64,000 bases of DNA. It comes from an uncultured Pseudomonadota bacterium (GTDB taxonomy: Bacteria; Myxococcota_A; Polyangia; Fen-1088). The translations under genes were made by a program, and so were the position numbers. Below are positions 7,068-25,582 of the stretch, in pieces (position 1 is the first letter of the stretch; each line of letters begins with the position of its first letter). Location: positions 128,001 to 192,000 of the forward strand of contig CAWKBC010000014.1 of the NCBI GenBank assembly GCA_963847705.1. The letters are read 5' to 3'. Under the pieces are notes generated by a model. That model was not told where the DNA came from. It worked only from the letters and a program-made list of their open reading frames with translations, and searched no databases.

Positions 7068-9641
7068 TTGCTTGCTCTTCACCTTCTGTCCGCCCTGCTC
7101 GCTTTAGCGCCGAACGAGGGCACCGAACCGCCCCATCTGGTCGCGGTCAAGACGCCGGCCCCGCCGCTCATCGACGGTCGCCTCGAAGATCCGGTCTGGC
7201 AGCTGGCCCCGGGCACCTCGGCGTTCACGCAATCCTTCCCTTTCGACGGCGGGCTGCCCTCGGAAAAGACCGTGCTGCGCGTGCTCTACGACGAGACGGC
7301 GATCTACATCGGGTTCGAGTGCGAGCAGCTCCACACGCCGATCGTCGAGCGCCTGACCCGCCGCGACCGCGACTCGGAGAGCGAGTGGGTCTACGTCAAC
7401 ATCGATTCGCGCAACGACGGCAAGAGCGCCTACATGTTCGCCGTCAACATCGCCGGCGTGCTCGCCGACGCACAGATCATCGACCAGACCACCTACTCCT
7501 GGGAGTGGGACGAAAACTGGGAAGCGAAGACCACCCGGACCAAGAAGGGCTGGTCGGCGGAGATCCGGATCCCGCTGCGGGTGCTGCGCTTCGACAGCAA
7601 GCTGCCGGTGCAGAGCTGGGGGTTCCAGGCCTCGCGCTTCATCGCCCAGCGGGAAGAGACCGACCTGTGGACCTACGTCCCGCGTGACGTCGCGGCGCCG
7701 ATCGCGTTCTACGGACGCCTCGATGGCCTCAGCGATCTCAGGGGGGCCGGCGCGCTGGAGCTGCAGCCCTTCGTCCTCGCCTCCGGCCAGCGGCGCGACG
7801 CCAGCCAGATGGCCGTCGGAGGCGGCACCTCGGGCAGCGCCTCGGCCGGCCTCGATCTCAAGTGGCACATCGCCCAGGACCTCACCTTCGACGCCGCGCT
7901 CAACCCGGACTTCTCCCAGGTCGAGCTCGACCAGATCATCCTGAACCTCGGCACCTACGAGACGTTCCTGCCGGAGAAGCGCCCGCTTTTCCTGGAGGGG
8001 ATCGACGCCTTCTCGTTCCCGATGCAGGTCTTCTATTCGCGCCGGATCGGCAGCGCGCCGGTGGCGCCCTCGCTGCGGAGCGATGCCTCCAGCAACGAAG
8101 AGCTGGTCAACCTCACGACGCCGGCGACGATCTACGGCGCCGGGAAGCTGGTCGGCCGCCTCAGCCCCAACTGGACGATCGGCGCGCTGAGCGCCCTCAC
8201 GGCCGCCAACAACGTCACCATCTACGACAACATCAACGAAAGAGAGACCCAGCGGCTGGCGGCGCCGATCACCGCATTCAACGTTCTGCGTCTCAAGCGC
8301 GAGCTCGGCAGCGGCGGCCACATCGGCCTCATCGGAACCGGCTCGACGACGTTCGAGAACGACGGCGGCTACCCCAAGCTGACCACCGAGAGCCTTCGCG
8401 AGCTGTGCCCCTCGGGGGCGACCCCGCCCGTCGGGAGCAACTGTTTCCACGACGCCTACGTCGGCGGCCTCGACGGTCTCTGGCGCTCGCCCTCGGGCGC
8501 CTACGTCGTCAACGGCGCGTTCATCGAGTCGTACATCCGCGGCGGGCCGGTGGTCATGCAGCCCGACGGGACGTTGATCGGCTCGGGCGCGGCGGCGCCG
8601 GGCGGGTGGCTGCGGGTGGCGAAAGAGGGGGGCAAGCACCTCACCTGGAGCGCGGAGTACACCGGCGCGGGGCGCCAGCTCGACTACAACGACCTCGGCT
8701 ACATGCAGCGGCAAAACGTGGAGACCGTGCAGGCGACTGTCGGCTGGCGGACGCTGGAGCCGGGCAAGCACACCGTCGACACCACCAGCACCCTGGTCGT
8801 CTCGGACAGCCGCAACATGTCCTGGCTCGATCTCGGGCAGGGCTACGAGCTGAACACGCGCCTCCACCTGCTCGACTTCTCGTCGGTGTTCCTGGCCGCG
8901 GACTACGCCCCCGCGCGCTTCGACGACCGCGAGGTCGGCGACGGCACCGCGCTCGAGCGCGCCGGCTACCTCGGCGGCAAGCTGGAGTACGACAGCGATC
9001 CGCGCCGCGCCGTCTACGCGACGATCGCCAACCAGACGCAAGTGATGGGCGCCGGCATCTACGCGACCAGCGTGCAGGCGAGCGCCCTGTTCCACGCGCT
9101 CCCGCAGCTCGACATCGAGATCATCCCGACGTTCACCTGGGCGGCCGGCGAGTACCGCTACGCCTGGCAGTCGGTCGGCCCGGACGACCCCTATCTGTTC
9201 GGCAAGCTGGCCGCCAAGAACGTCAGCGCCACCCTGCGCGCCAGCTACACCTTCACCCCGCGCCTCACGCTGCAGGCCTACGCGCAGGCCTTTCTCGCCT
9301 CCGGACATTTCTCCGACGTCCGCGCGATCGGCGCCCTGCCGAGCGGGCCCGGCGCGCCCCCGCGCCAGCCAGGCGGCACGGTTCACCTGTCGACGCTCGC
9401 CGGCTCTCCGGGAGTCATCCCCGGCACGAACCCCGACTTCGAAGAGGCGGCCATCAATGCCAGCGTCGTCTTCCGCTGGGAGTACCGCCTCGGTTCGACT
9501 CTCTATCTCGTGTATACCCGCTCACAAATTCCAGAGGTACAGAACCTGATGGGCCCGGCGATGCTGGCTCCGCGCGAGTTCAACCACGGCGCGGCGACCG
9601 ACGTGATTTTGCTGAAACTCTCATATTGGTGGGCCAGCTGA
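7068..9641 (+). CDS. Outer-membrane protein with N-terminal CBM9-like domain and DUF5916-like barrel
   Basis: IDGRLEDPVW, GWSAEIRIP, NPDFSQVELD, FLPEKRPLFLEG, FYSRRIG, FRWEYRLGSTLYLVY, C-terminal KLSYWW. Confidence 0.8.
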   Translation: MLALHLLSALLALAPNEGTEPPHLVAVKTPAPPLIDGRLEDPVWQLAPGTSAFTQSFPFDGGLPSEKTVLRVLYDETAIYIGFECEQLHTPIVERLTRRDRDSESEWVYVNIDSRNDGKSAYMFAVNIAGVLADAQIIDQTTYSWEWDENWEAKTTRTKKGWSAEIRIPLRVLRFDSKLPVQSWGFQASRFIAQREETDLWTYVPRDVAAPIAFYGRLDGLSDLRGAGALELQPFVLASGQRRDASQMAVGGGTSGSASAGLDLKWHIAQDLTFDAALNPDFSQVELDQIILNLGTYETFLPEKRPLFLEGIDAFSFPMQVFYSRRIGSAPVAPSLRSDASSNEELVNLTTPATIYGAGKLVGRLSPNWTIGALSALTAANNVTIYDNINERETQRLAAPITAFNVLRLKRELGSGGHIGLIGTGSTTFENDGGYPKLTTESLRELCPSGATPPVGSNCFHDAYVGGLDGLWRSPSGAYVVNGAFIESYIRGGPVVMQPDGTLIGSGAAAPGGWLRVAKEGGKHLTWSAEYTGAGRQLDYNDLGYMQRQNVETVQATVGWRTLEPGKHTVDTTSTLVVSDSRNMSWLDLGQGYELNTRLHLLDFSSVFLAADYAPARFDDREVGDGTALERAGYLGGKLEYDSDPRRAVYATIANQTQVMGAGIYATSVQASALFHALPQLDIEIIPTFTWAAGEYRYAWQSVGPDDPYLFGKLAAKNVSATLRASYTFTPRLTLQAYAQAFLASGHFSDVRAIGALPSGPGAPPRQPGGTVHLSTLAGSPGVIPGTNPDFEEAAINASVVFRWEYRLGSTLYLVYTRSQIPEVQNLMGPAMLAPREFNHGAATDVILLKLSYWWAS

Positions 9642-9752
9642 TTCGAGACTAGCGCCCACTAGTCATAGATCCTGGAACCCGGCTGGTCTTAGTCGCGGCG
9701 CGCCCGGACGCGGAGGTCGTTGAGATGACGGTCTCTGCTGGGTTGGGCGAGG

Positions 9753-9768
9753 TGGCACGATCGCTGCT
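9753..9768 (+). promoter_or_regulatory. sigma54 -24/-12 promoter (of decayed precursor copy)
   Basis: TGGCACG-ATCG-CTGCT matches TGGCACG-N4-TTGCW with one change; near-identical to the 10346 site. Confidence 0.65.
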
Positions 9769-24064: not shown

Positions 24065-24099
24065 GACGTTTTCGCAAACTGCCTTCTGACCGACCAGCC

Positions 24100-25582
24100 A
24101 TGTCCACCGATAAGCACGAGATTACGCAGACCATCCCGCCCCGCGTCGGCCTCAACCGGGAGGGAGCCCGGCAGGGCGCCCTCATCGTGCTGGGGGACGG
24201 CGCCTCGATTGACAGCCTCCGGACGCCCCGGCTCGTGCCGATGGCCAAGCTGACCCTCGAGATCGGGCGGCGCGCCCCGGCGACACCGGGTCCGACGACC
24301 CTGACCCTGTCCGACAGCACCGTCTCCGGACTGCACGCCCGCCTTCAGCGCCCGGGTGACCGGTCCGAGCTGTTCGTGATTCACGATTCTCGACAGCACC
24401 AACGGCACCTTCGTCGACGGACGCCGCATCCACGGTCCCACGCCGCTCGACGACGGCAGCGTGCTCTTCCTCGGCTCTCAGGTCCTGGTCTTCCGGCTCT
24501 ACACGGCGGCCGAGCTGGCCGCGGTCAGCGAAGACGCCGCCGCGCCGCTGACGCCGGTGGCCACGCTCTCACCGGCCCTGGCGCTGACGAGCTCCAAGCT
24601 CCGCCGCCTGGCGCGCTCCGACACCGAGATCTTCCTGCTGGGCGAGACCGGCGTCGGCAAGGAGGTGTTCGCCGGTGCCGTGCACGCGCTGTCGGGGCGC
24701 GCCGGGAAGCTCGTCCCCGTGAACTGCGCCGCGATCCCGCGCGAGCTCGTCGAAAGTGAGCTCTACGGGTACGAGAAAGGGGCGCACTCGACCGCCCAGG
24801 CTCGCAAGACCGGTCTGGTCGAGGCGGCTGACGGCGGAACCCTGTTCCTCGACGAGATCGGCGAGATGCCGATCGAGCTGCAGTCGAAGCTGCTCCGGTT
24901 CCTGCAGGACCGACGGTTCTCCCCCCTCGGTTCGACCCGGGTCGTGGAGGCGGACGTTCGCATCATCGCCGCCACCAGCCGCGTGGCGCTCGACACCGGG
25001 AAGCACCTGCAGGAGGCGATGCTGGGGCGCCTCGGCGCGCAGCCGATCGTGCTGCCGCCGCTGCGCGATCGGATCGAGGACCTCGGGGCACTGTGCGCCT
25101 ATTTTCTCCGGGAGATGACCGACGGGCGCACGTTCGAGCCCGATGCGTTCAAGGCGCTCATGCTCCACGACTGGCCGCTCAACGTTCGGGAGCTGCTGAA
25201 GGTGGTGACGCAAGCCGAGGTGCTGAGCCGCAACACCCCCACCATCGGCTTCGAGCACCTTCCGACCGCGATCGCCGCCAGGATCCAGTACGAGGGCCAG
25301 GACGAGCTCGAGAACACGACCGTCGATCCCGAGCCGCGTTCCGGGGACGACGACGAGGCGCCGTCGACCGGCGTGGTGCGCGAGGCCCTCGCCGCGGCCC
25401 CCACCACGCGCGTGCGCCGCCCGGCGCCGACGCGGGAGGAGCTGATCACCGCGCTGGCCCGATCCAACGGCAGCGTCGCTCAAGTGGCCCGCCTCCTCGA
25501 CCGCCAGTACGCGGTCGTCTGGCGGATCATCCAGCGCTACGGAATCGACGCGGGCTCGTACCGCAAGAATGGGAGCATCTGA
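24100..25582 (+). CDS. FHA-domain sigma54 enhancer-binding protein, apparent frameshift at ~24387
   Basis: FHA motifs IGR, VSGLHA, (D)STNGTFVDG after removing one T; GETGVGKE, LFLDEIGE, WPLNVREL; C-terminal HTH. Confidence 0.88.

Follow-up and report, generated by a model that had tools for sequence, protein, structure and literature searches.

A candidate strain-specific peptide-pheromone circuit with a TPR-ectodomain Ser/Thr kinase as putative receptor in a Polyangia genome

Introduction

In the RRNPP systems Rap-Phr, PlcR-PapR and NprR, a short peptide is bound by a superhelix of tetratricopeptide repeats (TPRs) bearing conserved Asn residues in its groove. The plant hormones CLE and IDA are likewise peptides, released from polyproteins, ending in His-Asn and read by receptor Ser/Thr kinases, and the multi-cassette precursors of ribosomally synthesized and post-translationally modified peptides (RiPPs), such as cyanobactin PatE, carry several cores flanked by fixed recognition motifs. 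Switches operated by a tail Thr are known from GarA and OdhI, and myxobacteria reportedly possess sigma54 enhancer-binding proteins (EBPs) containing a forkhead-associated (FHA) domain. PMC7595303 names the RRNPP class and describes the co-diversification of pherotype and receptor in ComC/ComD. Myxobacteria and planctomycetes have undergone a massive expansion of membrane Ser/Thr kinases with periplasmic TPRs, the function of the TPRs being given as 'mostly unknown' (PMC11032199), and the A-signal of M. xanthus consists of amino acids mixed with peptides and is not the product of a dedicated gene (PMC12288465). The locus considered here spans positions 7068-25582 of a 64,000-nucleotide stretch (contig CAWKBC010000014.1, positions 128,001 to 192,000; the window) from an uncultured Polyangia bacterium, one of a family of soil bacteria resembling myxobacteria, and encodes a polyprotein precursor, an ATP-binding cassette (ABC) exporter with a C39 peptidase domain, two TPR-bearing Ser/Thr kinases (STK1 and STK2), a stand-alone TPR protein and an FHA-containing sigma54 activator (Table 1). 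Its sequences suggest a strain-specific peptide-pheromone circuit, running from the precursor through C39 export to the STK1 TPRs, the sigma54 activator and back to the precursor promoter, a reading to which a probability of roughly 0.6 is assigned.

The closest described relatives in design are ComC/ComAB/ComDE and BlpC/BlpAB/BlpHR (PMC7595303), with which the locus shares leader cleavage and export by a C39 ABC transporter (predicted here), a peptide co-encoded with a membrane receptor (putative here), allelic pherotypes with a co-diverging sensor domain, here without a graded correlation between core and receptor, and autoinduction, which is predicted here, an enhancer and a sigma54 site being present. 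The host, in contrast, is diderm, a leader of about ten residues ending in KAG is repeated within a polyprotein, and the heterodimeric exporter lacks an HlyD partner. No His kinase and response regulator occupy the neighborhood; these are replaced by Hanks-type Ser/Thr kinases with TPR ectodomains (Pkinase-TPR proteins) and the FHA-sigma54 activator, and an additional TPR protein would read an Asn-His-Asn (NHN) tag. A cytoplasmic TPR superhelix is shared with the RRNPP systems, but the stand-alone TPR protein has neither a helix-turn-helix (HTH) nor a Rap effector domain and shows no divergence in step with the core, whereas the TPR that does diverge forms part of a kinase and lies in the periplasm. 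Like the myxobacterial FHA EBPs and GarA/OdhI, the locus places an FHA-AAA-HTH protein with a conserved N-tail Thr beside Ser/Thr kinases; it differs from those EBPs in that a candidate ligand, receptor and enhancer are all identified, and in a non-canonical GAHSTA loop. The pairing of a C39 transporter with a peptidase-less half-transporter, and the multiple cores per precursor, recall the NHLP export pair and PatE, although scores fall far below the NCBIfam cut-offs and neither a known tailoring enzyme nor an NHLP leader is present. Analogy, with no homology claimed, extends to CLE and IDA in the short peptide from a multi-copy precursor, the repeat ectodomain and the Ser/Thr kinase output, with TPRs in place of leucine-rich repeats and bacterial export machinery. 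Judged by these features, the locus appears to work like a double-glycine pheromone circuit, falls outside that class by the end of its leader, its type of receptor and its transducer, and is not an RRNPP system. No description of a peptide/TPR-kinase circuit was found in the literature searched, which did not extend to most subscription papers or to any supplements.

Divergence of STK1 and its linkage to the precursor

Relatives of the exporter (the best 80 of 110 matches were taken, giving 79 loci) comprise 34 Polyangia-type loci, referred to as the family, and 45 non-Polyangia loci; the closest of these best 80 bear the labels Polyangia or Myxococcales. Relative loci are designated L and genomes G, the genome holding the window (G000) being 6.1 Mb in size and 85% complete, and 36 family genomes were searched.

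STK1 and STK2 each contain a kinase domain, one hydrophobic helix (Kyte-Doolittle 1.6) and C-terminal TPRs, in agreement with the first-pass annotation, which had described two paralogous transmembrane Ser/Thr kinases with TPRs beyond the membrane helix. The STK1 ectodomain adds four invariant Cys residues to its TPRs, and a basic stretch precedes the helix, features that fit a periplasmic ectodomain. Compared with L001, L002, L027, L080 and L081, identity in STK1 is 93-95% over the kinase domain but falls to 48-58% in the final TPR segment. Synonymous divergence along the gene rises from 0.23 to about 0.75 (saturated) toward the end abutting the precursor, where the GC content is 0.62 as opposed to 0.67-0.78, and related metagenome contigs cover positions 11057-12358 at just 0.9, other parts of the locus being covered at a depth of at least 6 and mostly 13-57. 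Terminal branches have a median length of 0.34 in the TPR tree versus 0.088 in the kinase tree (approximately fourfold), and the main cores differ in all 26 of the 26 tail-to-tail precursor-kinase pairs. This is the pattern of a cassette that is old, undergoes exchange and joins a peptide to its sensor, as described for the streptococcal pherotypes (PMC7595303).

The proposal that both kinases are receptors is supported for STK1, which behaves like a cognate receptor, but not for STK2, which was rejected in that role for lack of hypervariability: its TPRs in L081 are 92-93% identical and synonymous divergence along it is flat (0.16-0.28). STK2 is absent or shortened at many loci and would be a dispensable component, a modulator at most.

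STK1 and the precursor lie tail-to-tail, 52 bp apart. Precursors were found in 29 of the 36 family genomes, and 34 stretches were taken around precursor matches outside the loci already in the set, from which 26 distal loci were called; the calling pattern missed four of the 34 (L193 and L202, both tail-to-tail; L178, with no kinase; and L183, a core-locus fragment). An STK1-type kinase lies within 1.5 kb of the precursor in 16 of the 26 distal loci (nine tail-to-tail, five head-to-head and two on the same strand), against a chance expectation of 0.5-1.1% per locus, and these adjacencies are mostly below 500 bp and in fixed orientations. Around 70-80 kinase loci exist in G000, only five of which bear this ectodomain, two of them at this locus, and a kinase with the ectodomain is found at 21 of the 34 Polyangia-type exporter loci. 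An absence of conserved linkage between precursors and kinases, named beforehand as an outcome that would count against the circuit, is thus not what the distal loci display, yet the linkage was not seen at the non-Polyangia exporter loci (0/45). Because the distal linkage and the divergence peak in STK1 are joined by a conserved promoter enhancer, described below, signaling from the peptide to STK1 is well supported by comparative evidence. Neither precursor, stand-alone TPR nor ectodomain kinase was found in G028, G029, G031 and G036 (92-100% complete), and an activator orthologue search found nothing in three of these four and a 54% paralog-like match in G028.

G000 further encodes three orphan kinases with ectodomains paralogous to that of STK1 (C32:66.6-68.7 kb, C27:332.7-335.2 kb and C29:356-358 kb; L159-L161), the kinase domain of the C32 copy being 86% identical. 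No precursor was called beside any of the three, and they are candidate readers of peptides from other strains. Tandem kinase clusters adjoin some precursors, and in L208, L187, L195, L093 and L104 an NHN precursor or TPR gene stands beside a gene resembling an extracytoplasmic function (ECF) sigma factor, whether or not a kinase is present, which would be an alternative output module.

The precursor and its leader family

The precursor carries the cores GLGTA (seven times), AVDVLSA (twice) and GGPGSLVA (once), each followed by NH[NS], and its DNA consists of a 63-bp repeat present 9.5 times. The motif occurs at this single site in the 6.1 Mb of G000, and the protein gave no Pfam or NCBIfam match above cut-off. 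Earlier description as a ten-cassette precursor with a GG/GA motif was accurate in the number of cassettes but not in the motif. A calling pattern that demands [KR][AG][AG] yielded 112 NH-type cassettes. In these, the triplet before the core is KAG in 96, KAA in 6, RAG in 5, KGG in 4 and RGG in 1, so that the fixed end is [KR]AG (101/112), while the residue that follows is Gly in just 61. The apparent GG/GA arises because AG runs into the first residue of the core. Cleavage after GG/GA was therefore rejected, the leaders lacking the GG (rarely GA or GS) end of double-glycine leaders, and cleavage after AG, by the known biology of C39 peptidases, would be the better reading. The 112 cassettes hold 72 distinct cores, and 98 of the cores are 4-5 residues long. 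One core, GLSTVNHN, unlike most, recurs in L162, L178, L191 and L210 (four genomes, three genera) and is possibly a shared signal.

Across the exporter clade, a leader of about ten residues, K[VI]K[TS]x[VIL]KAG, precedes highly different cores, and appears to represent a leader family of general use whose cargo can be interchanged. The KAG leader and an exporter of the clade occur with unrelated cores in L041, L045, L048, L049, L051, L060, L061, L062, L073 and L078, including KCLWGA, RHGADDKPG, VTLKYPSD repeats, Gly/Pro micro-peptides and cores ending in RCTGI or RCVGI.

Export of the peptide

The peptidase domain of the exporter matches PF03412 (E 4e-21) and presents the Q/C, H and D motifs QTSAMDCG, VHFVV and VMDP, supplying the catalytic Cys-His-Asp set. 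By analogy with other C39 systems, the ten-cassette precursor is predicted to undergo cleavage behind every KAG, with export through the C39 pair. Against the NHLP pair TIGR03796/TIGR03797, scores reach 75-118 bits relative to cut-offs of 853 and 709, the exporter having been scored in two pieces. An HlyD protein of the exporter clade accompanies 41 of the 45 loci outside the family, versus none of the 34 family loci and none in G000; as there is no HlyD partner, release of the peptide into the periplasm is likely.

The outer membrane label given to the DUF5916 protein derives from the Pfam assignment and from weak ESM Atlas neighbors, which are unnamed or weakly barrel-like. No informative sequence match in the PDB and, in the literature searched, no paper on DUF5916 was found. 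The gene adjoins precursors in several rearranged family loci and occurs in none of the 45 non-Polyangia exporter loci. From this repeated adjacency, it is a guess that DUF5916 passes the peptide over the outer membrane; if it is not a pore, the loop could be autocrine or contact-dependent.

The precursor promoter and the FHA activator

Twenty-seven distinct precursor promoters, chosen for a sigma54 match, were compared, and TGACTAG-N(3-6)-CTAGTCA, with at most two mismatches, is present at 21, in 18 of which it lies 87-90 bp upstream of the -24 element. Two-mismatch sites taken alone are at chance level, being about as frequent as a reversed control, whereas every site free of mismatches, across 41 genomes, belongs to a precursor. 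G000 contains 28 sites of the sigma54 pattern, and its only two combinations of an enhancer with a sigma54 site are those at this locus. Since the enhancer is conserved at precursor promoters, a dedicated sigma54 activator is to be expected, and the local FHA protein is, on its sequence, a candidate for driving the precursor promoter. It matches PF00158 (E 3e-50) and weakly HTH_8, and has Walker A and B motifs (GETGVGKE and LFLDEIG) along with the HTH. Its FHA motifs GR/SxxH/NG and an N-tail [ST]xT are retained in 29 of 29 aligned orthologues, and the recognition helix is nearly constant.

Several variants of the enhancer arrangement were seen. At the promoters of L004 and L006 the usual enhancer is replaced by another palindrome, TGGTCATATGACC, with the activator helix unchanged. 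Enhancer-like repeats and a sigma54 site stand upstream of an ABC transporter ATPase gene in L223 (G022:C162:488), the sole candidate target found other than a precursor, and palindromes in G002 and G024 stand before an antitoxin-like gene that has no sigma54 site.

The stand-alone TPR protein and the NHN tag

That the stand-alone TPR protein is a mere accessory was not borne out; across phyla it is the constant partner of NHN peptides. Among the 45 non-Polyangia loci, nine have an NH-type precursor and all nine have a TPR orthologue, 34 have neither, and the remaining two, with the TPR only, proved on inspection to encode NHNET peptides. In an independent metagenome set retrieved with the TPR alignment (79 loci, one left out for its low score), an NHN motif lies within 3 kb of 31 of 51 TPR orthologues versus 0 of 27 generic TPRs, many of the misses among the orthologues being short contigs or Polyangia-type loci with the precursor farther off. 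The tag itself occurs behind KAG leaders; behind ELEEVIAP leaders, after which comes a large gene with an HlyD domain; with Sec-like signal peptides; and beside a major facilitator superfamily (MFS) gene. It also ends a larger protein, of 179 residues with a signal-peptide-like start, that finishes in NHNETLVRD just before the TPR gene in L156 (9191-9730). A search for the TPR in 300 other genomes across the phylum gave no orthologue, a weak result given that just six candidates were scored per genome, and a plasmid search returned generic TPRs alone.

By Pfam the protein is composed of TPRs only, and it lacks a membrane helix, which places it in the cytoplasm. Its model is a superhelix (pLDDT 95) with APPBP2 as the best match (TM 0.74); the PDB matches listed include no enzyme fold and no Rap, PlcR or NprR. 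Invariant N, K, H, N, H, D and E residues fall on alternate helices and face the groove, and the protein is 84-92% identical in close relatives while the cores vary. It is likely a reader of the precursor or a maturation factor on the production side. TPR-SET fusions were observed in L053 (3079-4815) and L111 (1061-2734), and in L140 (6360-8165) a single frame, which may be a merged one, encodes both the TPR and an MFS transporter. A co-fold of the STK1 TPR, the stand-alone TPR and a 33-residue piece of precursor scored 0.00 and was used neither for nor against any reading.

The view that no RiPP tailoring enzyme is evident stands insofar as Pfam and NCBIfam revealed no tailoring enzyme of this kind at the locus other than an accessory amidohydrolase; that enzyme had not been listed, and the TPR protein may itself be a maturation factor. 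The amidohydrolase gene begins 10 bp behind the TPR gene and is present in 16 of the 34 family loci and 0 of the 45 others. As a speculation, this hydantoinase-like enzyme could open a cyclic imide derived from Asn, or destroy the signal.

The proposed circuit and alternative explanations

In the proposed circuit, the cytoplasmic TPR protein would probably bind the NHN tag before export, and trim, modify or chaperone the cassettes. The exporter, without HlyD, may release the peptide to the periplasm and DUF5916 may carry it over the outer membrane, a tentative step that is not favored as it stands. Activation of STK1 by peptide binding is the step held with most confidence and is quite probable. 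STK1, possibly via STK2, could then phosphorylate the tail Thr of the activator, which would bind TGACTAG-N6-CTAGTCA and turn on the precursor promoter, at about even odds, and the orphan paralogous kinases would read the peptides of other strains. A further proposal, possible rather than probable, is a eukaryote-like peptide hormone, in which a prohormone would be matured by a TPR-only protein with chemistry at the Asn-His-Asn tag, and strain-specific peptides would be read by TPR-ectodomain Ser/Thr kinases swapped together with the peptide gene, with autoinduction by FHA-sigma54.

Several results weigh against the pheromone circuit. All counts were drawn among kin genomes and are not independent. 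Ten of the 26 distal precursors have no STK1-type kinase nearby, neither the ectodomain kinase nor the FHA module occurs at any of the 45 non-Polyangia exporter loci, a kinase of any kind is found at just three of the nine non-Polyangia loci with an NH-type precursor, and at E<=1e-60 no ectodomain kinase was found in G026 (96% complete) and G034, both of which have the exporter together with the precursor and the TPR. Similarity of cores and of receptors is uncorrelated (Mantel rho -0.03, p 0.60, n=26), and the near-identical cores GLTFI and GLTTI adjoin receptors just 50% alike. In 36 orthologue hits the activator loop reads GAHSTA and not GAFTGA, whereas the canonical loop is present in 21 further activators of G000, so the promoter may be driven by a different activator. 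The activator gene also sits within a block syntenic with housekeeping genes, and its linkage could therefore be neutral. Finally, G000 revealed no target promoter other than the precursors as an output regulon.

This last result would also suit an antagonist of the RiPP type, in which the TPR protein would mature a peptide acting as a cationic antimicrobial or in competition, with STK1 sensing that peptide to boost production or self-protection, like lantibiotic sensor kinases, and signaling being secondary. The gene order precursor-TPR-(HlyD)-exporter in other phyla, the TPR-SET methyltransferase fusions, the increased yield from ten copies per precursor, and the other cores carried by the KAG leader, some beside ATP-grasp-like genes, all agree with such a function. 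It is nevertheless unlikely, as cores of just 4-7 residues show no Cys or aromatic pattern, HlyD is missing from the family loci, no immunity-like gene was seen, and the orphan receptor paralogs better fit eavesdropping. Pairing of NHN and TPR across phyla, together with the peptide-binding superhelix fold, could instead identify the cytoplasmic TPR protein as the true receptor, in RRNPP fashion, with the peptide exported, re-imported and read via its tag and the kinases as passengers. The conservation of this protein across strains whose cores all differ, its want of an HTH or other output domain, and its production-side SET and MFS fusions render this quite improbable, and the divergence peak in STK1 and the distal linkage would be left unexplained.

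Were the neighborhood a product of chance, abundant TPR kinases having inserted beside a peptide-export locus with no functional link, the many kinase loci of G000, the TPRs in 26% of S. cellulosum kinases (PMC11032199) and the tandem kinase clusters near some precursors would be expected. This is very improbable in light of the rarity of the ectodomain (about five kinases per genome), an adjacency of 16/26 where about 1% is expected, at short distances and in fixed orientations, and a divergence peak limited to the ligand-side end of STK1. Less probable still is a Fap- or curli-like amyloid fiber of repeats, processed by C39 and secreted via a DUF5916 barrel; regular 21-residue repeats containing Asn, a C39_FapD match that is weak and far below cut-off (E 0.0017) and the adjacent barrel-like protein speak for it, but many homologues have only one or two cassettes, four unrelated export routes share the NHN tag, a Sec signal is missing, and the hypervariable cores are paired with kinases.

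The eukaryote-like hormone system, if true, would give the numerous TPR receptor kinases of myxobacteria their first defined ligands, and its pherotypes, numbering dozens, would make up a code for recognizing kin. The circuit would also extend genetically encoded pherotype signaling by peptides, so far described chiefly in Gram-positive bacteria with His-kinase or RRNPP systems, to diderms and Hanks-type kinases. The locus offers a candidate ligand, 26 natural ligand-receptor pairs, an enhancer sequence and a candidate phospho-site, and the question of what TPR kinases bind is therefore directly testable. The NHN-reading TPR protein may be a new maturation factor, and its relatives occur in cultured hosts, among them Actinoplanes aureus (L046) and Methylomicrobium lacus (L058).

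Features of the locus

Every gene listed in the first-pass annotation is present in the interval, and the list was correct as far as it went, omitting the amidohydrolase, two enhancer palindromes and a second precursor, now decayed, that has a sigma54 site of its own (Table 1).

Table 1. Features of the locus, in window coordinates
Feature	Position	Strand	Source
DUF5916 protein with CBM9-like N-terminus; presumed outer membrane barrel	7068..9641	+	Pfam
Enhancer palindrome 1, GACTAG-N6-CTAGTCA, 87 bp upstream of -24	9647..9665	.	
Sigma54 -24/-12 site of second precursor	9753..9767	+	
Decayed second precursor: cassette remnants, broken frame; copies in L027 and L081 intact	9797..9958	+	
Enhancer palindrome 2, 89 bp upstream of -24	10238..10256	.	
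Sigma54 -24/-12 site of main precursor	10346..10360	+	
Polyprotein precursor, 232 aa, 10 cassettes LKV[KR]S[AT]I[KR]AG / core / NH[NS]RSA	10421..11119	+	
STK1, Hanks kinase (HRDFKPDN), helix 12711-12767, ectodomain 11187-12698; likely receptor	11172..13862	-	
ABC half-transporter without C39 domain, partner of exporter	13989..16109	-	
C39 peptidase-containing ABC exporter; frameshift near 16865, relatives intact	16106..18881	-	
Stand-alone cytoplasmic TPR protein, 17 helices	18912..20042	+	
Hydantoinase-like cyclic amidohydrolase, directly behind TPR gene	20053..21444	+	
STK2, same ectodomain family, HRDVTPQN clade; divergent from activator	21515..24064	-	
FHA-AAA-HTH sigma54 activator, extra base near 24387	24100..25582	+	

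The exporter and the activator are each interrupted by one frameshift. Both are probably assembly errors, because both genes are unbroken in L080 and contigs from two sequencing runs lack one base at 24387 relative to the assembly. An Rfam search gave no match. A frameshift near 26270 in the adjoining RlmI-like methyltransferase gene (25582-26758) is a further sign of assembly indel errors, and a 35-bp unit is repeated three times at 21412-21516, between convergent genes, where it overlaps the stop codon of the hydantoinase gene.

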